Shown: positions 4,697-25,112 of the stretch, in pieces
Layout: every line of letters starts with the position of its first letter
Numbering within the stretch: position 1 is the first letter of the stretch
Program-made: the position numbers and the translations under genes
From: an uncultured Anaerolineaceae bacterium
Lineage (GTDB): Bacteria > Chloroflexota > Anaerolineae > Anaerolineales > Villigracilaceae
Assembly: GCA_964392495.1 (NCBI GenBank)
Contig: CAYMQX010000001.1
Span: forward strand, 1 to 28,425
Length of the DNA stretch: 28,425 bases
Reading direction: 5' to 3'
Notes under the pieces: generated by a model
Databases searched by the model: none
The model's input: only the letters and a program-made list of their open reading frames with translations
Told to the model about the DNA's origin: nothing

Positions 4697-5758
4697 TCAT
4701 ACCACATGGATCGGGTTGCTGAAGATCCAGCCCCGGCGGGCTCCCAGGTAGTTCCGATAGGCTTCGATGCGGTAGACGCCGGGTGCGGTGGTAATGTGCG
4801 TGAGGGCCTGCTGGCTCTTCCATGCTTTCAGCACTGCGCCGTCCTTTATAAGGCGGAGTTCGGCAGCGCGCGGCAGGACGGCCTGCAGGGTAACACCTCC
4901 ACTGGCAGAGACTTCGCCGCCCATGATCACATTCCGTTCCCGGCCCTGGGCAGTGAAACGAAAGCCGCGCGTGGGGGCGGGGAGGTCATAGCCCACAAAG
5001 CAATTCCCGGCGGAAAGTGCCTCGTACACCATTTGCCTGTCGGTTTTGAACTCGCCCGTGAAGGACCGAGGCAGGATTACATGCGTGTTGATCGTTCTAA
5101 AGTGGAATTCGTAGGGAAAAATGATACGGCGGATGGGCCCTAAATGCCTGTGAAGGGCGTGTGCATCCGAACCGCCGATTGCCACAATGCGGCGCCCCTC
5201 ATTGAGCAAGTCGTCCCATTTATCGAGGGTGGCGACTTCAGGCCCATGTGCGATAAATTGGGGGAAAAAGGCGTGAAACATGGCGTGAAATCGGGTCGGG
5301 ATGACGGTTTTTAGCTCACTAAGCCCATTCCAGAGCTCGAGGCCGGTAAAATTCCGGACCGACCAATCCTCCCAAGTGATGGCGGTCTCATGGAACAGCG
5401 GGGCTTCGGTCTCATGAGGATGGGCCAGAAAACTCAGGCCGCCGGCCTCGCAGACAGAATCGATCAGTCTCTGAGGATCATCTGCAAGGGTAGCCAGTTC
5501 GCGCTGTGCGCCGAACACCAGCAAATGGTTCTTCTGAGGATCCCGGTCCTGGTCGTGGATCTCCTCACCGATCAGCATCAAGAGCCGGCGGTTTTTTTCC
5601 CGGTAATAGCCTTCCAGACCATCAACCAGCACATTGTGGTCGGTGACAATGAGGGCGTCGAGACCGGCGCGGATTCCGGCACGGGCGATATCCCTGTGGC
5701 TTCCGGAACCGTCTGAGTAGCGCGTGTGCATGTGAAGGTTCAGTATGATTTCGTGCAT
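4697..5758 (-). CDS. PHP-domain metallohydrolase (CehA/McbA-like)
   Basis: PHP metal ligands: LHMHTRYSDG, VTDHN, GEE, AHP and GGSDAH. The probable start is MHEIIL at 5758, because the ORF-track extension to 5833 overlaps the secG promoter and start. Confidence 0.85.
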   Translation of the reverse strand: MHEIILNLHMHTRYSDGSGSHRDIARAGIRAGLDALIVTDHNVLVDGLEGYYREKNRRLLMLIGEEIHDQDRDPQKNHLLVFGAQRELATLADDPQRLIDSVCEAGGLSFLAHPHETEAPLFHETAITWEDWSVRNFTGLELWNGLSELKTVIPTRFHAMFHAFFPQFIAHGPEVATLDKWDDLLNEGRRIVAIGGSDAHALHRHLGPIRRIIFPYEFHFRTINTHVILPRSFTGEFKTDRQMVYEALSAGNCFVGYDLPAPTRGFRFTAQGRERNVIMGGEVSASGGVTLQAVLPRAAELRLIKDGAVLKAWKSQQALTHITTAPGVYRIEAYRNYLGARRGWIFSNPIHVV

Positions 5759-5767
5759 AATGGTGAA

Positions 5768-5797
5768 TTGACGATTTCCCTTTGGAACAGGTATAAT
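5768..5797 (+). promoter_or_regulatory. sigma70-type promoter for secG
   Basis: TTGACG (5768-5773), 18 bp spacer, TATAAT (5792-5797). SD AGGAGG precedes the ATG at 5827. Confidence 0.75.
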
Positions 5798-5826
5798 GTG
5801 CCCGCTATTTTCTAGGAGGCACACGC

Positions 5827-6051
5827 ATGACAAACTTTCTGAATATCGCGCTGATTATAATCTCGGTCGGACTGATCATCAGCGTCATCCTGCAGAGTAA
5901 GGGAGCCGGACTGGGCAACCTGACAGGAGCCGACATGGGAGGGGTTTTCACGGCCCGGCGCGGTATCGAGCGCGTCCTGTTTTGGGTTACCATTGCGCTG
6001 AGCGTGGTATTCTTCGCATTGGTGCTGTTTGTAATCGTATTCGCAATCTGA
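5827..6051 (+). CDS. secG: Preprotein translocase subunit SecG
   Basis: 74 aa with two hydrophobic segments flanking LQSKGAGLG...GG....RRGIERVLFWVT. Strong SD. Confidence 0.95.
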   Translation: MTNFLNIALIIISVGLIISVILQSKGAGLGNLTGADMGGVFTARRGIERVLFWVTIALSVVFFALVLFVIVFAI

Positions 6052-6067
6052 ACCGGAAACTCCGCGC

Positions 6068-6135
6068 GAAAGGCCGCCGCTCGCCTGCCCGTATGGATCG
6101 TCGCGGGCCGGTACGACATGCGGCCTTTCTTTTTT
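6068..6135 (+). terminator. Terminator-like long hairpin between secG and the SBP gene
   Basis: gaaaggccgc (6068-6077) pairs with gcggcctttc (6120-6129), followed by six T (6130-6135). It encloses 42 nt that can form inner stems, so it is not a compact canonical terminator. Confidence 0.45.
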
Positions 6136-6145
6136 GTCTCTCCAC

Positions 6146-7837
6146 ATGAAAAGACTTCGCTGGCAGATACTGGTTATACTCATTACGCTGATCATTGTTG
6201 CCGTCCTGCTGGTAGGACAGCAGCCGGTCGGCAACCTCCCCCTGCTTCCACAGCCTACGAGCGGCGGTGTCTACACTGAAGCCCTGGTGGGATCCATGGG
6301 ACGGCTGAACCCACTGCTGGATTGGAACAACCCAGCCGACCGGGATATCAACCGCCTTATCTTCAGCGGTCTGATCAAGTTCGATTCCCATGGGCTGCCA
6401 CAGCCTGACCTGGCGGAATCGTGGGGCACCTCAGCGGACGGCACGATCTATAATTTCACGCTGCGGCCAAATGCCCTCTGGCAGGATGGTGAGCCGGTCA
6501 CGAGCGATGATATTGTATTCACGATCAACTTGATCATGAGCAGCGGATCACTGTTCCCGCAGGATATCAAGGACCTGTGGTCTGAGATCGAAATCAAGCA
6601 GCTGGATGAGAAGAATCTGAAATTCACACTCCCGGAGCCCTATGCTCCTTTTCTGGATTATGTGACCTTTGGGGTGCTGCCGAAACACCTGTTGGAGTCG
6701 ATCACCCCCGAGCAGCTTTCCAGCGCGGAGTTCAACCTAAAACCGATCGGCACGGGACCGTACAAGTTTGACCACCTGATCGTGGAAGACGGTCAGATCC
6801 GCGGCGTTGTACTTACCCTGAATGAACAGTATTATCTCAACAAACCCTTCATTCCCCAGGTCGTTTTCAGGTATTATGCGGATTCAGCGGGCGCCTTGGA
6901 TGCCTATGAACAGGGGGAGGTCCTTGGGGTCAGTCAAATCGGGAACAAGGTGTTGGAGAAGGCGTTGGCCGATCCTACCCTTTCGATCTATACCAGCCGC
7001 CTGCCGCAGCTAAGCATGGTATTCCTGAATCTCAAGAATCCCGCCACGCCATTCCTGCAGGATGCGAAGGTGCGCCGGGCTCTCATGATGGGTCTGAATC
7101 GCAAGGCCATCGTGGCGAATTTCCTGGGTGGCCAGGCGATCATTGCAGATGGCCCCATCCTGCCGGGTTCCTGGGCTTACTACGATGGGATCGAGCATAT
7201 CGAGTACGATCCCGAGGCGGCGGCCAATCTGCTTAAGACCGAGGGGTATGTGCTTCCGGCTTCGGGCGGCGATGTACGCGAAAAGGAGGGCCAACCACTG
7301 GCTCTCACGCTGGTCCATCCCGATGACGAACTGCATACCCAGATCGCCGAAATGATTCAAAACAATTGGGGGCAGATCGGTGTGCGGGTTGATCTGCAGC
7401 CTGCAAGCTATGAGATGTTGGTCCGGGACTATCTTGCACCGCGCAGTTATCAAACGGCTCTGGTGGACCTGACCATGGCGCGAACGCCCGATCCCGATCC
7501 TTATCCCTTCTGGCATCAGGCCGAAGCCACAGGTGGCCAGAACTACTCACAGTGGGATGACCGTACGGCCAGCGAATACCTGGAGACTGCGCGGACCTCG
7601 ACTGATTTTACCGACCGCACGCGCTTATATCGGAATTTCCAGGTCATCTTCTCCAAAGAACTGCCGTCATTGCCGCTCTATTATCCGGTTTATTCTTATG
7701 GGGTGGATTCACAGGTGCAGGGTGTCCAGGTGGCACCGTTGTATGATACCAGCGACCGCCTGGCATTCATTCAGGAATGGTATCTGATTACGCGGAGAAC
7801 GCTGGAAGAAACCCCTGCCGCCACAGTCGCACCATAG
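6146..7837 (+). CDS. Peptide/nickel ABC transporter substrate-binding protein (family 5, OppA/DppA-like)
   Basis: LNPLL...LIFSGLIKFD..G...PDLAESW, YNFTLRPNALWQDGEPVTSDDIVFT, PIGTGPYKF and VRRAL. N-terminal basic plus hydrophobic anchor with no lipobox Cys. ATG at 6146 preferred over TTG at 6134. Confidence 0.92.
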   Translation: MKRLRWQILVILITLIIVAVLLVGQQPVGNLPLLPQPTSGGVYTEALVGSMGRLNPLLDWNNPADRDINRLIFSGLIKFDSHGLPQPDLAESWGTSADGTIYNFTLRPNALWQDGEPVTSDDIVFTINLIMSSGSLFPQDIKDLWSEIEIKQLDEKNLKFTLPEPYAPFLDYVTFGVLPKHLLESITPEQLSSAEFNLKPIGTGPYKFDHLIVEDGQIRGVVLTLNEQYYLNKPFIPQVVFRYYADSAGALDAYEQGEVLGVSQIGNKVLEKALADPTLSIYTSRLPQLSMVFLNLKNPATPFLQDAKVRRALMMGLNRKAIVANFLGGQAIIADGPILPGSWAYYDGIEHIEYDPEAAANLLKTEGYVLPASGGDVREKEGQPLALTLVHPDDELHTQIAEMIQNNWGQIGVRVDLQPASYEMLVRDYLAPRSYQTALVDLTMARTPDPDPYPFWHQAEATGGQNYSQWDDRTASEYLETARTSTDFTDRTRLYRNFQVIFSKELPSLPLYYPVYSYGVDSQVQGVQVAPLYDTSDRLAFIQEWYLITRRTLEETPAATVAP

Positions 7838-18085: not shown

Positions 18086-20428
18086 CTATTGTGATTGCTT
18101 TTCCTGGAAGCCGATCAACGCCTGGAGGGGTACAGCCAGGAGGGCATCTCCCTGACGTCCGGTATTCCAGGTGATTATCAGGTCGCGGCGCGCCCGGGTG
18201 ATGCCCACATACAGGAGTCGCAAGCGTTCTCTCACGTAATCGAGACGGGCGTGGAGGGTGGGGACACCTTCCTCATACCAGTCATATGCACCCATGGAGA
18301 GTGCCGAATTGAGTTGGTCCAGGGCTTCGGACTCAAGGTTCAGATTGCCGCGGATAAACCATTTTTCTGATATATAACGGTCCGCCGCCTGCAGGGAGGG
18401 GAAGTCGTAGTTATTGACGGACATCAAGTACACGCGGTCCCATTCCAAGCCCTTGGCCTTGTGCATGGTAGTAACAACCACCCGGCCGCGATGGCGATCG
18501 GGATCGAAACCGGAATCATCGGGCGAGAAGCCAATGAAGCGGCGCTCGTTGCGGGCGATAACCGTCAGTTCAGCGGTCAACTCCGGCAGCCTGTATTCAG
18601 GGTGATCCAACGCGGCGCGCCGAAGGACTGAGGCAAGCTTCTGGGCGAGGGCGAGATCTGCAACGCTGGTAAAGATATCCTGTGCCAGGGTTAATAGGAG
18701 TTGGTCGATCGGCAGGGTGACTGCATCCAGCCAGCGTCGGACATGCTCGCGGAACGTTTCAAGCTCGTGGGCCAATTCCTGTGAGGCATGGAGGCCGGCC
18801 AGCCAGTCGTTTTCCGGATTCGGCGCGATGAAGGATTCCACTGCGCTTAGTCGCCGGAGCAATGCGGTGGCGGTGGCGAGCAGCTTTTTTCGACTGGAAT
18901 TGATCTGCGCAGAGTCGGCATCTTCCCCGGGAGTATCTTCATCCTGTGGAGCCCGATCAACACCGAGTGCCTCGTGAGCAGATGTCACGGTGGCGGGGGT
19001 TTCTCCAACCTGAGGGTTGATGGTGTCTTCACGCCAATCACGCCGCCAGACCTGGTATGCCTTGGAAAGCTTTGAAGCAGACTGGGGGTCTGCAAGATAA
19101 CCAATGAGGAGGCCGAGAGCGCCCGCTGCTGCACGCGTGTTGGATGTGCTGGCAAGGAACTCAAGATAATCAATGCCGCGCTGCTTGAGGACATTGATCA
19201 GGTCTACACCGCGCAGGTTGCGCGGGACCAGCACGGCTACGGTGGATTCTGGATGATCCGGGAGCCAGCGCGCCAGGGATGCAGCTACTGCATTGACCTC
19301 CTCATCCGGGGTCATGCGCCTGGCCACCAGGTGGATGGCGCCGGGATCCGCTGGAGGGTTGGGCTGGGGATCGCCGATCGGGGCGGGATGGATGTGAGGA
19401 AGGCCGAGCGCAGATCGGACCTCGGGGACCGGATGGTCGGAAGTGACCCAATCTACGAGATGGTTGGCCAGATCGAGAATGGCAGGCTGAGAACGACCGG
19501 ATTCTGGCATGTCCACACTGGGATTTTCGCGTATGAAAACGCGCAGGAGTTCAGGCGAGGCGGTGGTGAAGGTCTCGAAAATAGCCTGGTTGGGATCTCC
19601 CACGCGCACCCAGTTGCCTCCGGGGCCAGAGAGCAGCTCAAGGATATTCTGCTGCAGGCGGCTCGAATCCTGGGCTTCATCTTCCAAAACAAAGGGGAAA
19701 CGATGACGCAATCGTAGCAGGTACTCGGGATCCAGTTCAAGTAGGTCAAGTGCAAGCCGGATCAGGTCGTCGAAATCCACGGCGGCGCGATAGGTGAGGG
19801 CGCGTTGATAATCAGAGTAGATGGACAAACCCATCTCGGCCAGGGGCAGCGGGCCGGGGGCGCGGTCTAAAAGAAGCCTGAGCTTGTCGGGGGTAAGCCG
19901 GCGATCCTTCGCCGAGCGGATGAAAGCCAGGGCTACATCAGAGATGAGCTCGGGGAGCGGCTGGCGGCGGACCCAGTCGCGGCGGGAATCCTCCAGTTGT
20001 GGATCCAGCAGGTCATCCAGAAGGTGGGCATTGGCCGCCAGCCAGGCATTGACGGCTTCACGGCGAATGAACTCGGCCTCGCGGTCGTCAATAATCCCGA
20101 ACTGGTTTTCCAATCCCACACGTGAGGGCTTTTCGCGGACGATATCATGCGCCAGTCCATGCAGGGTGCGGACCCGGTATCTGTAAAGAGCATGGAGTGG
20201 ATTATCAAAGAATTGCTTGATACGGCGCTCGAAATTATCGACCGCGGAGTTGACAAGGGTGACGATCAGAATCTCCTGCCCATCGCCAAGCTGGCCTCGC
20301 TGGATGATATCAGCGGCGAGTTTGGAGAGTATCTGGGTCTTGCCGGCGCCGGGAACAGCGGCAATGCCCAGACGGCCACTCCGGTAGCGGAGAATTTGAG
20401 ATTGGGAGGGACGGGGCTGGAAAGGCAT
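18086..20428 (-). CDS. SF1A (UvrD/PcrA/AddA-like) ATP-dependent helicase without a nuclease domain
   Basis: Motif I AVPGAGKT, Ib RTLHGLA, DFDDLI, II DEAQD, III VGDPNQAIF, V TMHKAKGLEWD and VI ERLRLLYVGITRAR. The protein ends about 35 aa after motif VI. Confidence 0.92.
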   Translation of the reverse strand: MPFQPRPSQSQILRYRSGRLGIAAVPGAGKTQILSKLAADIIQRGQLGDGQEILIVTLVNSAVDNFERRIKQFFDNPLHALYRYRVRTLHGLAHDIVREKPSRVGLENQFGIIDDREAEFIRREAVNAWLAANAHLLDDLLDPQLEDSRRDWVRRQPLPELISDVALAFIRSAKDRRLTPDKLRLLLDRAPGPLPLAEMGLSIYSDYQRALTYRAAVDFDDLIRLALDLLELDPEYLLRLRHRFPFVLEDEAQDSSRLQQNILELLSGPGGNWVRVGDPNQAIFETFTTASPELLRVFIRENPSVDMPESGRSQPAILDLANHLVDWVTSDHPVPEVRSALGLPHIHPAPIGDPQPNPPADPGAIHLVARRMTPDEEVNAVAASLARWLPDHPESTVAVLVPRNLRGVDLINVLKQRGIDYLEFLASTSNTRAAAGALGLLIGYLADPQSASKLSKAYQVWRRDWREDTINPQVGETPATVTSAHEALGVDRAPQDEDTPGEDADSAQINSSRKKLLATATALLRRLSAVESFIAPNPENDWLAGLHASQELAHELETFREHVRRWLDAVTLPIDQLLLTLAQDIFTSVADLALAQKLASVLRRAALDHPEYRLPELTAELTVIARNERRFIGFSPDDSGFDPDRHRGRVVVTTMHKAKGLEWDRVYLMSVNNYDFPSLQAADRYISEKWFIRGNLNLESEALDQLNSALSMGAYDWYEEGVPTLHARLDYVRERLRLLYVGITRARRDLIITWNTGRQGDALLAVPLQALIGFQEKQSQ

Positions 20429-20528
20429 TCTGTATCCTATTGAGTGGAGGCGCTTTCAGTTGGCGATCCGGATAGACGATGAAAAGCGTGTCGGCCTCGG
20501 CCGTCGCTTTGCCGCATGTATTTTTCGT

Positions 20529-22607
20529 CTAGCCGGGTGCGGGCGGGTTAAGCAGGCGTTGGAAGATCCTGAGCAGATCCCCACGCTGCTCGAAGCCGGC
20601 TTCCCCCAATTCCGACAGGCACAGGTAAACACGTTCGCGGCAGCGGTGGAGCAATCCGATGACGAGCCGGTGAAGCGATTCGCGCGCGGCCCAGACCTCG
20701 TCCGTGTCGCTCCAGAGGCGTCCGGCAGGCCACTCGCGGGAGAGCACATACGGATGGGTGACCGGCTGCGCAAGCCGCTCATACCACTGTGCTGAACCTA
20801 CGTCCAGCCAGAACTGTACGGCAGCGGGACGATTCATCATCAGGAAGGTGTAGGCAGGTGCGACCAACACGGCATCCTTGTCATTGGATTGCCAACCCTC
20901 CAGATGCTGTGCGGCAATGACGCCCTCCTGAAGCATCGCGTAATATTCTGTCCCGACCTGGCGGGAATCAACCAGCACAGACTCGGTTACCTGTCGGAAA
21001 CCACGTACTGAATCCACAAGGTTGGATGCGACCCGGATCGAATCCAGTCGATCATGGAAGCGGAAGCCGGTCTGGGAAAGCACCTCGCCAAAGAGCTTGC
21101 GGAGGAAATGATCCAGATATAGCGGCTCCATGTTGCGATAGGCCAGCAGCCATTCGCGCAGTGCGGCATAGCGTAGACCAACCGAGAAAGTGATCCGCTC
21201 CTGGGTTTCCGGCCGGATTCCTTCAAAAGGGGCAAGGGAAAGGTCGCGAGGTCGATAAACAATATCGGTCAGCAATTGGGCACGGACCAGATCAAGACCT
21301 TCCAGTGATTCCATCAGGGCGTAAGCGATATCGAATTTGGGAGGGTGAACATCCCAGCCTGGATGTGCAAGGGCGGCCAAGGTCAGCAGTGTATGCGTGG
21401 CCGGCTCATCCTTGAGCGAGCGGGATGGACGATGAGTTCGCCAGGGAACTCCCAGCCTTTCCAACCGGTTCACCAGGGAAAAGCGTAGCGCATCTGAAAG
21501 ATAGGGTCCCAGGATCGCAATTTCCGAGGGCGGCAGTCCCGCCTCGATCAACGCATGGACTTCGTTGGAAACGCCATCCAGGAGCTCCGGAAAGAAATGG
21601 GAGTGGATGACTGATAGCGCTTCGGTTTCCAATGGTCTGGAAGGATCCGGTGCGGGAGGTGAGATGGCCGCGGACAGGCTGGCGCTCAGGCCTTCGATCG
21701 CCGGGGACATGACAAAGGAATCTGTCAGAACGATATGCTGCCCGCACAGGTCGCGCAGCTCCCAGGCAGTGGCAGGGTCCGCGCCCAGAAAAAGCCGAAA
21801 ACCGCCTCCCTCATCAAAGACAAACAGCGCGGACTGCAGCCCTGGCAGCAGAGCGCGTACGAAATCGTGAGCGCGCGGGGCGTCCTCTTCCACATTGTCG
21901 TAAACAAGGTGGCGATAGGTGCGGGTAAGATAAGCGTTCACTATTTCCTGCGGAAAAAGAATGTCGGCAAAGATCTCCAACTGCAGGGAAAAGTCCAGTA
22001 GATTGTTCTCAAGACAGTACTGCCGAAAACGATTGACACAATCCTGAACATTGGCATAAATGTTCCGCTGCGCTGGGTCTCCGAGATAGGCTGCCTCCAG
22101 CCGGGAGGCGATCCCGGTGTGGGGAAAACCGATCAGTGCAGCCTTGTTCAGATTGTCGAGAAGCTGCTGATAGAGCCGATTGCGGTCGATTGTGATGGAC
22201 TCGAAATAACCCTGATCCAGAAGCGGACGCACGATGTGGGACATGTGGTACTGAGCCGTCTCCAAATCAAGGAAGGTGGGGGGATAGTCGGGATGGGAAA
22301 AGCCAGCCGCCTCCGCAGCGAGAGGCCAGAACAACCCGGTCATGCGCCTGGCCAGGCCGCCGATAGTGGCGGAGGTGAGTATCCCTCCGGCGTAAGGTTT
22401 TTGTTCAAAGCTGGCCAGGTAGGGCTCCTGGAGGAAGCGTTGGGGGGTCATCAGGAGAATGGAATCTACAGGGACGCCCTGCTCGATCAGGAAATGCAAA
22501 CGCTCCACGGCGGAGGCGGTCTTTCCGGTCCCGGCCGGGCCAGAAAGAAAGGCCCGGCTGTCGAGAGGAAGGTGTACGATCTGTTGTTGCGCCGGAGTCA
22601 GTTCCAT
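20529..22607 (-). CDS. Degenerate SF1 helicase-fold protein (AddB/AdnA/RecC-like scaffold), no nuclease domain
   Basis: LTPAQQQIV and Walker A GPAGTGKT are intact. Later motifs are recognisable but decayed (YDNVEED for DExQD; FDEGGGFRLFLGAD; LLHRCRERVYL). Confidence 0.75.
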   Translation of the reverse strand: MELTPAQQQIVHLPLDSRAFLSGPAGTGKTASAVERLHFLIEQGVPVDSILLMTPQRFLQEPYLASFEQKPYAGGILTSATIGGLARRMTGLFWPLAAEAAGFSHPDYPPTFLDLETAQYHMSHIVRPLLDQGYFESITIDRNRLYQQLLDNLNKAALIGFPHTGIASRLEAAYLGDPAQRNIYANVQDCVNRFRQYCLENNLLDFSLQLEIFADILFPQEIVNAYLTRTYRHLVYDNVEEDAPRAHDFVRALLPGLQSALFVFDEGGGFRLFLGADPATAWELRDLCGQHIVLTDSFVMSPAIEGLSASLSAAISPPAPDPSRPLETEALSVIHSHFFPELLDGVSNEVHALIEAGLPPSEIAILGPYLSDALRFSLVNRLERLGVPWRTHRPSRSLKDEPATHTLLTLAALAHPGWDVHPPKFDIAYALMESLEGLDLVRAQLLTDIVYRPRDLSLAPFEGIRPETQERITFSVGLRYAALREWLLAYRNMEPLYLDHFLRKLFGEVLSQTGFRFHDRLDSIRVASNLVDSVRGFRQVTESVLVDSRQVGTEYYAMLQEGVIAAQHLEGWQSNDKDAVLVAPAYTFLMMNRPAAVQFWLDVGSAQWYERLAQPVTHPYVLSREWPAGRLWSDTDEVWAARESLHRLVIGLLHRCRERVYLCLSELGEAGFEQRGDLLRIFQRLLNPPAPG

Positions 22608-23605: not shown

Positions 23606-23634
23606 TTGACACAATCCGGAGCCGAATGTATAAT
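23606..23634 (+). promoter_or_regulatory. Consensus sigma70 promoter of the rplU-rpmA-rpmE operon
   Basis: TTGACA (23606-23611), 17 bp spacer, TATAAT (23629-23634). Confidence 0.9.
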
Positions 23635-23789: not shown

Positions 23790-24296
23790 ATGAAATATGC
23801 GATCATTGAAAGCGGCGGGAAGCAATATCGCGCCGTCGAAGGCGGGACCTTGGATGTGGACCGCCTGTCAGTTGAACCGGGTAAGAAACTCGATCTTGAG
23901 AACATCCTGTTGATGGCAGATGGGGAGGATGTGAAAGTCGGGACTCCGGTTGTGAACGGGATCCTGGTCAGGGCGGTAGTGCTTGCCCATGTCAAAGGTC
24001 CCAAGGTCGTCACCTTCAAGTATCGCCCCAAGAAACGCATCCGTGTTAAGAGCGGGCACCGCCACCAATATACCCGCCTGATGGTCGAATTCATTGGAAG
24101 TCCGGACGAGGAAGGCAAGCCCGCCCGGATGGCGAAACCGGCGGAGGTTGAGGAAGCAGCGGTTGAAACCGCTCCCAAGACCAAGGTCGAGAAAAGCGTC
24201 AAGGCTCCCAAAGCGACTGCCAAGCCTGCGGCCAAAAAGACCACCAAGCCGGCGTCGCCCGCCAAAAAAACGACGACCAAAAAGACCACGAAGTAA
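23790..24296 (+). CDS. rplU: 50S ribosomal protein bL21 with ~65-aa Lys/Ala/Thr/Pro-rich C-terminal tail
   Basis: MKYAIIESGGKQYRAVEG...KVVTFKYRPKKRIRVKSGHRHQYT, followed by a low-complexity tail. Confidence 0.97.
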   Translation: MKYAIIESGGKQYRAVEGGTLDVDRLSVEPGKKLDLENILLMADGEDVKVGTPVVNGILVRAVVLAHVKGPKVVTFKYRPKKRIRVKSGHRHQYTRLMVEFIGSPDEEGKPARMAKPAEVEEAAVETAPKTKVEKSVKAPKATAKPAAKKTTKPASPAKKTTTKKTTK

Positions 24297-24308: not shown

Positions 24309-24572
24309 ATGGCACACAAAAAAGGCGGCGGTTCCAGCCGCAACGGACGGGACAGTAATTCCCAGCGTCTGGGTGTGAAGCGCTATGCCGGCCAGTTCGT
24401 TCTGGCGGGCAATATCCTCGTACGCCAGCGCGGGACCAAGATCAAGCCTGGGCTGAATGTACTGGCAGGCAAGGACGATACGCTCTTTTCCATCATCGAC
24501 GGGGTCGTGATGTTCGACATCGTACATGGACGGAAACGCGTGAACGTCCTGCCTGAGGCTGAGAGCAAGTAA
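24309..24572 (+). CDS. rpmA: 50S ribosomal protein bL27
   Basis: [25 protein letters not shown]...[11 protein letters not shown]...GKDDTLF. Confidence 0.98.
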
Positions 24573-24580
24573 AGGAAGTC

Positions 24581-25054
24581 ATGAAACCTGAAATCCATCC
24601 CACTTACTATCCGGATGCCAAGGTCACTTGTGCATCCTGCGGAAAGACCTGGACGACCGGTTCGACCCGGAAGGAATTGCGAGTGGATATCTGCTCCAAT
24701 TGCCACCCGTTCTTTTCCGGCGAGGCGGCCCGTATAATCGATATTGAAGGTCAAGTGGACCGCTTCTACAAAAAACTGCAGGCCCGTCAGACACATGTCC
24801 AGGCCAAGGAGGCCCGCGAGGCTGCCAAGAGTTCGCCTGAACGGCTGATCGAAGAACTCGGCCTCTCTACCCGGGCTACGGAGGCTCTCAAGAAGGGCGG
24901 GATCGAAAAGATCGGCCAGCTTTTGACCAAACTTGCCGAGGGCGACAAGTCGGTGCTGACTATCGCAGGTTTTGGGCAGTCTTCGCTTACAACCGCCAAG
25001 AAGAAGCTGCGCAGCATGGGATACGAGCTCCCTGAAGCGCAGGCTGCAGCGTAG
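24581..25054 (+). CDS. rpmE: 50S ribosomal protein bL31 (Zn type) fused to an RNA polymerase alpha-CTD-like domain
   Basis: Residues 1-66 are bL31 ([29 protein letters not shown]). Residues 90-150 follow the alpha-CTD pattern ([26 protein letters not shown]...GFGQSSL...KKKL..MG). Confidence 0.93.
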
Positions 25055-25072
25055 AACGAAGCAGTGATTTTC

Positions 25073-25104
25073 AAACAGGCAGACGCGAGATCGTCTGCCT
25101 GTTT
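25073..25104 (+). terminator. Intrinsic terminator after rpmE
   Basis: 13-bp perfect inverted repeat aaacaggcagacg (25073-25085) / cgtctgcctgttt (25092-25104) with a 6-nt loop and a short T tail. Confidence 0.75.
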
Positions 25105-25112
25105 GCTATAAT
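25104..25112 (+). promoter_or_regulatory. Extended -10 promoter for tdk-hpt, overlapping the rpmE terminator
   Basis: TG-C-TATAAT at 25104-25112, 48 nt upstream of the tdk ATG. Confidence 0.6.

Follow-up and report, generated by a model that had tools for sequence, protein, structure and literature searches.

How does the gene of a ribosomal protein come to carry a domain of RNA polymerase (RNAP), and what could that domain do once it is on the ribosome? The question is raised by rpmE, the gene for ribosomal protein bL31, in an uncultured Anaerolineaceae bacterium (Chloroflexota; contig CAYMQX010000001.1, positions 1 to 28,425; this whole 28,425-nucleotide stretch is referred to here as the window). 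An earlier note, made from the letters alone, had read this gene as one unbroken 157-residue open reading frame (ORF) in which residues 1-66 are bL31, residues 67-89 are a charged helical linker and residues 90-150 align with the C-terminal domain of the RNAP alpha subunit (alpha-CTD). The translation, which runs unbroken for 157 codons and then stops, the Pfam matches and an AlphaFold2 (AF2) model all bear out this layout. It is virtually certain that the rpmE product is a genuine bL31 followed by a charged linker of about 23 residues and a folded alpha-CTD paralogue. The parts of the gene are the following.

24581..25054, forward strand: rpmE fusion gene for bL31, linker and alpha-CTD-type domain, 157 aa plus stop (ORF list, Pfam, NCBIfam, phmmer against the PDB)
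24581..24778, forward strand: bL31 domain, aa 1-66, Zn-type (above-cut-off Pfam and NCBIfam matches, end-to-end alignment with solved bL31 chains)
24779..24847, forward strand: charged, helix-prone linker, aa 67-89 (AF2 helix 43-83; mean pairwise identity 0.46)
24848..25033, forward strand: alpha-CTD-type domain, aa 90-151 (PF03118 at 36.6 bits; RpoA-only PDB matches; Foldseek template modelling (TM) scores of 0.72-0.88)
24872-24874, forward strand: codon of R98, equivalent to E. coli R265
25034..25051, forward strand: short Ala-rich C-terminal tail, aa 152-157, predicted to be disordered (predicted local distance difference test score, pLDDT, below 50 at residues 153-157; variable among relatives)

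The N-terminal part was matched by Pfam Ribosomal_L31 (PF01197) over aa 1-66 with 85.5 bits (cut-off 27) and by two NCBIfam L31 equivalogs, NF000612 (83.9 bits, cut-off 70) and TIGR00105 (80.2 bits, cut-off 38.35). In the PDB, phmmer aligned aa 1-66/71 with bL31 chains, the alignment to solved chains running through residues 66-71. The four Zn-ligand cysteines (C17, C20, C38 and C41) are all present in columns that are invariant across the family, and the 11-residue C-terminal segment with which bL31 contacts the 30S head is kept and is invariant or nearly so among the relatives. The protein thus resembles canonical Zn-type bL31 (RpmE, bL31A) in its full four-Cys L31 domain, its head-binding segment and its location in a ribosomal operon, but it exceeds the bacterial bL31 chains in the PDB, which have 63-80 residues, by about 90, and the added part is a folded domain that comes from the transcription machinery.

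The identity of that extension was established by sequence and fold. Pfam RNA_pol_A_CTD (PF03118) matched aa 80-144 with 36.6 bits (gathering cut-off 23.8; E 3.6e-9), NCBIfam also matched the C-terminal ends of eight rpoA models, and phmmer placed aa 72-152 on RpoA chains only, with Thermus as the best match (E 4e-6). The AF2 model (pLDDT 79), for which the input was a fairly shallow alignment of proteins returned by the searches, has the L31 beta domain, a long helix at residues 43-83 and a C-terminal domain of five helices (90-93, 97-105, 111-119, 122-126 and 133-145). Foldseek matched this domain to alpha-CTDs with TM scores of 0.72-0.88 and root-mean-square deviations (rmsd) of 1.0-2.4, including 1doq (TM 0.72), 8y5t_A2 (TM 0.83, rmsd 1.1) and 9dvt_A (TM 0.88); among the 50 best-ranked matches listed were bL31 and then alpha-CTDs, with no other fold family. 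The earlier note had allowed that the tail might score as a generic helix-hairpin-helix (HhH) domain such as DUF4332. It scores as an alpha-CTD, and no match of the window protein to other HhH families (HHH_5, HHH, DUF4332) was found in Pfam even at E<=10. A generic HhH identity or that of a NusA acidic repeat (AR) was therefore rejected, the sole HhH-type match in Pfam being PF03118 and the PDB sequence and fold matches being RpoA only. Since its N-terminal partner is Ribosomal_L31, the tail is a paralogous PF03118 domain and not an RNAP subunit.

The two-domain architecture is already visible in precomputed Pfam annotations, in which the proteins are named plain L31. No description of a bL31-alpha-CTD fusion, or of alpha-CTD-type domains in NusA, was found in the literature, in agreement with the earlier note, which knew of no characterised example.

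A fusion found in a single contig could be an assembly chimera, the product of a lost stop codon or a functionless neutral fusion in decay, and its absence from relatives had been raised as a possible outcome. Instead, it was found in hundreds of relatives. Both Pfam domains are present in 119 of the 120 nearest 90%-identity clusters (153-165 aa), which come from NCBI, ENA, JGI and Logan and whose members, where they have a name, are listed as plain "50S ribosomal protein L31" from Anaerolineales or Chloroflexi. At least 536 relatives were returned by a scan that took a single genome for each GTDB species, and the best 80 loci were analysed; all of these come from Anaerolineae-type metagenome-assembled genomes (MAGs), match over the full length at 47-93% identity and include Anaerolineaceae, Villigracilis, Leptolinea, Longilinea, Pelolinea and Phototrophicaceae/Thermofontia. 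The median ratio of nonsynonymous to synonymous substitution rates (dN/dS) was 0.044 for the L31 domain, 0.107 for the linker and 0.109 for the alpha-CTD-type tail, values that are rough as dS is saturated, and tail residues R98, L103, G121, G132 and K140 are invariant in the family alignment. The fusion is old, class-wide in Anaerolineae and under purifying selection. A chimera or a lost stop codon was rejected because the fusion is found class-wide in hundreds of independent assemblies, and the conservation of the full length down to 47% identity, the dN/dS of about 0.1 and the several invariant residues of the domain also speak against a decaying remnant. An artefact or remnant is computationally refuted, and its remaining probability is negligible.

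Apart from being conceivable a priori, such a remnant has a single observation in its favour, which comes from one MAG. At locus L083 (2791-3276), an in-frame TAA follows ..EGQVDRFY and leaves a 62-aa L31 ORF and a 91-aa ORF that bears the tail; the stop could be a true split, a pseudogene or a sequencing error in this single MAG. L083 is an exception, in having a real in-frame TAA, among the stand-alone alpha-CTD proteins of 80-125 aa. Those inspected were mostly rejected as fragments of the fusion or mis-called starts (beginning ..DRFYKKL.. or MKKLQAR..), and a few others as RpoA fragments (e.g., P0191 and P0203). At locus L082 (2820-3312), for example, an annotated 103-aa "RNA polymerase alpha CTD domain-containing protein" is in reality an intact 163-aa bL31 fusion that was given too late a start codon.

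The genes and signals around rpmE are listed here.

23606..23634, forward strand: promoter-like TTGACA-17-TATAAT about 155 nt upstream of rplU (12/12 consensus matches, sigma-70-type)
23790..24296, forward strand: rplU (bL21), 168 aa (Pfam Ribosomal_L21p, aa 3-101, 106 bits)
24309..24572, forward strand: rpmA (bL27), 87 aa (Pfam Ribosomal_L27, 120.7 bits)
24573..24578, forward strand: Shine-Dalgarno-like AGGAAG between the rpmA stop and the rpmE start (read off the sequence)
25072..25105, forward strand: perfect 14-bp hairpin with a 6-nt loop directly 3' of the rpmE stop, lacking a U-tract (-23.8 kcal/mol, z = -3.6)

The rpmE start lies 8 nt past the rpmA stop codon. The order rplU-rpmA-rpmE-tdk-hpt is conserved among the relatives: rplU precedes rpmE in 70 of 72 loci, and tdk follows it in each of the 66 loci whose flank was long enough to tell. 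Judged from this arrangement, the fusion gene belongs to, and would be expressed from, the rplU-rpmA-rpmE ribosomal operon, for which TTGACA-17-TATAAT upstream of rplU is the likely promoter; the conserved operon also supports the predicted incorporation of bL31 into the 50S subunit and the 70S ribosome. The hairpin at 25072-25105 was not called by a simple terminator scan, would be a non-canonical terminator and may mark the operon end or be an RNA-stability element. A further TATAAT is found past this hairpin, at 25107-25112, ahead of tdk. The bL21 of the window has a Lys/Ala/Pro/Thr-rich C-terminal tail of about 65 aa (about 24095-24293). In several relatives (L004, L015, L017 and L029) the bL21 upstream of rpmE has a generic HhH domain (HHH_5 at 42.6 bits, DUF4332) plus a basic tail instead, the bL21 tail of L004 being one that matches HHH_5 and DUF4332, and an unextended bL21 of about 100-109 aa is found in 24 of 56 loci. 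Elsewhere in the window, two adjoining genes on the reverse strand (18086-22607) encode UvrD-like helicases of 780 aa and 692 aa; the second, a weak match, may be a degenerate AddB/RecB-like partner.

The protein might also act away from the ribosome. Free bL31-CTD, released when Zn is limiting or made in surplus, would then serve as a decoy that binds partners of the RpoA CTD, or would regulate its own operon; transcription would thereby respond to the state of the ribosome or of the zinc supply. In E. coli, bL31 represses its own synthesis and gives way to its paralogue when Zn is scarce (PMC10931766), and the tail of L083 is on a separate ORF. On the other hand, L083 is one MAG in which a sequencing error is possible, a non-exhaustive search of the window and the loci turned up neither a second L31 paralogue nor an operator, and the Rfam search of the window gave no matches and thus no leader RNA. 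In addition, the L31 part is the most conserved part of the protein, as expected of a working ribosomal protein. We consider this extraribosomal role improbable.

The origin of the domain was approached by searching aa 67-157 against 1.84 billion representative proteins, which gave 414 matches at E<=0.001. These consist of bL31 fusions and their fragments, RpoA with two CTDs, NusA fragments and multi-repeat alpha-CTD proteins. The best RpoA match among the representatives was a Chloroflexota two-CTD RpoA (P0131/P0275, E 2e-16). The nearest RpoA relatives are from Chloroflexota/Anaerolineae and are mostly 328-345 aa long with one CTD; a tandem alpha-CTD is found in 17 of 112 Chloroflexota RpoA (382-424 aa; P0275, P0276, P0280, P0284 etc.), where the second CTD is acidic with a mean net charge of -5.7. 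Some of the multi-repeat proteins (P0123, P0137, P0132, P0141 and P0144) have 4-11 tandem alpha-CTD repeats, and some also carry sigma-70 region 4 and HARE-HTH; one protein in the P0141 cluster bears a name that assigns it to an Anaerolineales MAG.

The short insert reported in the earlier note is a three-residue insertion at about aa 120-122 (EGD) relative to the Pfam model and to every solved alpha-CTD. A KLxxGxxx insertion is common to bL31 tails, NusA copies and Chloroflexota RpoA CTDs, while the solved alpha-CTDs all lack it and are 2-4 residues shorter over the aligned stretch, so that the tail is a paralogue that arose within the lineage. A single alpha-CTD subtype, recognisable by this insertion, has spread in a lineage-specific manner through RpoA (sometimes twice), NusA (once or twice) and bL31. 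The main group of bL31 tails has a mean identity of 0.42 to RpoA and 0.39 to NusA, and its source is undecidable from a neighbour-joining (NJ) tree of 62 columns computed without bootstrap.

The presence of this subtype in NusA ties the fusion to a transcription factor. On contig L081, nusA (4936-6939, reverse strand; 667 aa) is divergent from rplU-rpmA-rpmE(fusion)-tdk-hpt and encodes NusA_N, S1 and two KH domains followed by two RNA_pol_A_CTD domains. L081 is the only such locus; no nusA was found within 6 kb of rpmE in the 80 genome loci. PF03118 was found in 108 of the 120 nearest NusA clusters (P0417-P0536; P0179 and P0140 were also surveyed) from Anaerolineae, Anaerolineales and Chloroflexota, which were retrieved with the NusA core only as query, so that this NusA architecture is known from L081 and the nearest clusters, i.e., relatives of the window genome. 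These domains score about 34-61 bits each, have no HHH_5 match and are followed by a long acidic stretch and then a conserved basic tail (..LVYDEELGKxVAKRxRKPGRxRxxWED..). The NusA copies are of the same subtype as the bL31 tail, with the same insertion and in the same organisms; unlike the tail, they usually retain N268 and N294, they are followed by the acidic stretch and basic tail, and the NusA type has a net charge of -1.3. The two acidic (HhH)2 repeats of E. coli NusA, AR1 and AR2, are likewise HhH-type modules past the KH domains and provide a precedent for interaction with alpha-CTD (PMC5842316), but the Anaerolineae modules score as PF03118 and not as HHH_5, and E. coli has no such module on its ribosome.

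The bL31 fusions of the L081 lineage (cluster P0253/P0402, 154 aa) have a tail that shares 76-80% identity with the NusA repeats encoded on the same contig. Four fusions that were analysed separately, including the two of this lineage, have a mean identity of about 45% to the tails of the main bL31 family. In the NJ tree (62 columns, no bootstrap), the L081-type tail falls inside the NusA clade and all other bL31 tails form one clade. These sequences point to an exchange of modules between NusA and bL31 at least once, or to bL31 having acquired the module twice, that is, to replacement or to independent fusion.

Individual residues set the bL31 tails apart from the RpoA domain. Similarity to RNAP alpha-CTD includes membership in the same sequence family and fold, a flexible linker, the retention of R265, G296 and S299 and the Chloroflexota-type three-residue insertion; differences are that the tail is joined to bL31 and not to the alpha N-terminal domain (NTD), that N268, C269 and N294 are replaced and R293 is lost, and that K304, K305 and R308 have become invariant in the main family. 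With E. coli alpha 249-329 as reference (verified as identical to 1lb2_B and 10ma_G), the window residues correspond as R98=R265, E101=N268, A102=C269, G130=N294, G132=G296, S134=K298 and S135=S299. The earlier note was correct that Arg265, Gly296 and Ser299 are kept and that Asn268 is replaced by Glu and Asn294 by Gly; its replacement of Lys298 by Ser holds for the window but is a peculiarity of the window's subclade. An intact "265 determinant" for binding UP-element DNA (R265, N268, C269, G296, K298 and S299, plus N294) is thus not found in the window protein, which has R, E, A, G, S and S, with G at 294.

The same columns were compared, in E. coli numbering, between 73 bL31 tails and 112 Chloroflexota RpoA CTDs. 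R265 and G296 are invariant in both sets. N268, C269, R293, N294, K298 and S299 are invariant in the 112 RpoA, but in the bL31 tails position 268 is E or D in 52/73 (N kept in 5/73), position 269 is A in 52/73 (C kept in 0/73), position 294 is G in 71/73 (N kept in 2/73), R293 is lost, and K298 and S299 are kept in 50/73 and 58/73, respectively. A basic ridge of K304, K305 and R308 is invariant in the main bL31-tail family, which has a net charge of about +1. This ridge was rejected as a universal hallmark of bL31 tails, as the NusA-derived tails lack it (LKEKLQAEG there). The tails of the P0253 cluster show the same N268D and N294G changes relative to their near-identical NusA donor, whereas L082, a relative of P0253-type tails, retains N268 and N294; this pattern looks like directional change after transfer. 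Loss of N268/N294 as an obligatory feature was rejected because L082 keeps both.

In E. coli, these Asn residues reportedly contact UP-element DNA. An acidic residue at position 268 argues against UP-type DNA binding, and, since the family has systematically exchanged N268, C269 and N294 but never R265 or G296, the domain would probably not be a DNA binder of the UP-element type. Thermus RpoA naturally has H268 and G294, so that this argument is not absolute. The structural reading of the earlier note holds: the bL31 is real and conserved, and the alpha-CTD paralogue tethered to it has a changed DNA-binding determinant.

If not the UP element, the domain could still bind nucleic acid. As a tethered HhH domain it might contact polyanions non-specifically through the backbone, with the 16S rRNA of the head, incoming mRNA, tRNA or chromosomal DNA as targets, and the effect could be stabilisation of the ribosome, "fly-casting" capture of mRNA or retention of ribosomes on the nucleoid. 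The alpha-CTD has an (HhH)2 fold, which binds DNA. All tails have R265 and G296, most also have K298 and S299, and the basic ridge specific to the main family, with its net charge of about +1, is invariant. The operon's bL21 has, in relatives, been extended by Lys/Ala/Pro tails or a generic HhH domain, and tethered alpha-CTDs are reported to speed RNAP-DNA association (bioRxiv 10.64898/2026.07.21.739884). Conversely, N268, C269 and N294 are replaced even though they are invariant in the RpoA of the lineage, Asp or Glu at 268 should repel phosphate, the absence of the ridge from NusA-derived bL31 tails indicates that it is not universally required, and a NusA-type copy with net acidic charge can substitute for the tail. 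We regard a nucleic-acid-binding appendage as possible but rather doubtful; it is nevertheless almost as likely as docking to NusA or RNAP, which the data fit about equally and which is set out below.

The place of the domain on the ribosome can be proposed from bL31 itself. In the ribosome, bL31 contacts uL5 of the central protuberance through its N-terminal domain and uS13 of the 30S head through its C-terminal part, and so forms bridge B1b (PMC10931766). With the C-terminal part anchored on uS13, every 70S ribosome would present the tail at the top of its 30S head, joined by a flexible linker of about 23 residues, and display of the extra domain on the ribosome is, on this analysis, very probable. 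The domain might instead dock back on the head or the central protuberance and tune bridge B1b, head swivel and subunit association, or pair across ribosomes to give hibernating dimers. Consistent with such an intraribosomal function, bL31 is the B1b bridge protein and the length of its linker matters for subunit dynamics (PMC10931766), its head-binding segment is fully conserved, and many lineage-specific extensions of ribosomal proteins are structural. A folded transcription-factor domain that can be swapped for a NusA copy is hard to reconcile with a precisely fitted contact, however, and the linker is weakly conserved (0.46 identity), as expected of a flexible tether; this function is quite unlikely, if slightly less so than the extraribosomal one.

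The reading that we favour is that the displayed domain may be a protein-docking module for the transcription machinery, with NusA and/or RNAP as its partner. E. coli alpha-CTD binds NusA-AR2 and the NusA NTD (PMC5842316), and the candidate surfaces on NusA would be its universal NTD, its own alpha-CTD-type region or its C-terminal region. Docking of this kind would provide a ribosome-side handle that keeps the lead ribosome, NusA and RNAP together. The earlier note had proposed recruitment of NusA/RNAP, or a decoy or sensor role of the free protein; this functional reading gains circumstantial support from the same type of domain on Anaerolineae NusA and from the lineage in which the bL31 tail nearly copies its own NusA repeats. 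It is favoured by the origin of the domain, by its presence in NusA, by its interchangeability with a NusA copy and by the loss of DNA-contact residues. We propose a tethered module that docks on NusA or RNAP only tentatively, rating it at somewhat below an even chance.

Several points weigh against a docking module. A functional docking role is wholly inferred. AR2 is said to bind the UP-element face of E. coli alpha-CTD, and this is the face that is altered in the bL31 copies. In E. coli expressomes, the bL31 C-terminus is on the interface side of the head, tens of angstroms from uS10/uS3 and farther still from uS2/uS5, where NusA sits; given that distance, the tether may be too short unless NusA contributes its own flexible tail. 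The retention of N268 and N294 in L082 means that the substitutions are not obligatory, and the in-frame stop of L083 raises the possibility that bL31 can do without its tail or that the tail functions on its own. Furthermore, the bL21 of this operon has acquired a basic tail or a generic HhH domain in relatives; such extensions are what one expects if appendages that bind nucleic acid are being added generally, and fit less well with a device dedicated to coupling. The invariant K304/K305/R308 ridge likewise suggests, from its sequence, contact with a polyanion.

An extension of the docking proposal would be a modular, lineage-specific expressome in which RNAP alpha, NusA and bL31 each display interchangeable tethered alpha-CTD modules that couple the lead ribosome to the transcribing polymerase via bL31. 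The modules could bind shared partners (e.g., the NusA NTD) or each other, and the bL31 route either would not depend on the NusG-uS10 bridge or would supplement it. This larger scheme is less probable than either docking or nucleic-acid binding and, taken as a whole, unlikely. The known ribosomal handle for transcription-translation coupling is uS10 (NusE), which binds the KOW domain of NusG. The two cases are alike in that a protein of the 30S head region serves as docking point for a transcription factor, the coupling role of bL31 being hypothesised; they differ in that uS10 uses its own surface, whereas bL31 is a 50S protein that reaches the head and has an added, tethered polymerase-type domain.

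Transcription-translation coupling has been studied mainly in E. coli and Mycoplasma, and how ribosome and polymerase are linked in other phyla is an open question. A whole bacterial class with a polymerase domain hard-wired to its ribosome and to NusA, with copies exchanged between them, offers a concrete and testable handle on that question; the tail domain is small and soluble, and cultured Anaerolineae exist. If the domain should prove to be a nucleic-acid binder, it would still be a clear case of a folded domain of the transcription apparatus co-opted as a ribosomal-protein extension. In either case, the alpha-CTD is a mobile module and more than a part of RpoA, and its presence on bL31 hints, on the present analysis, that the ribosome and the transcription machinery may be physically linked in Anaerolineae.

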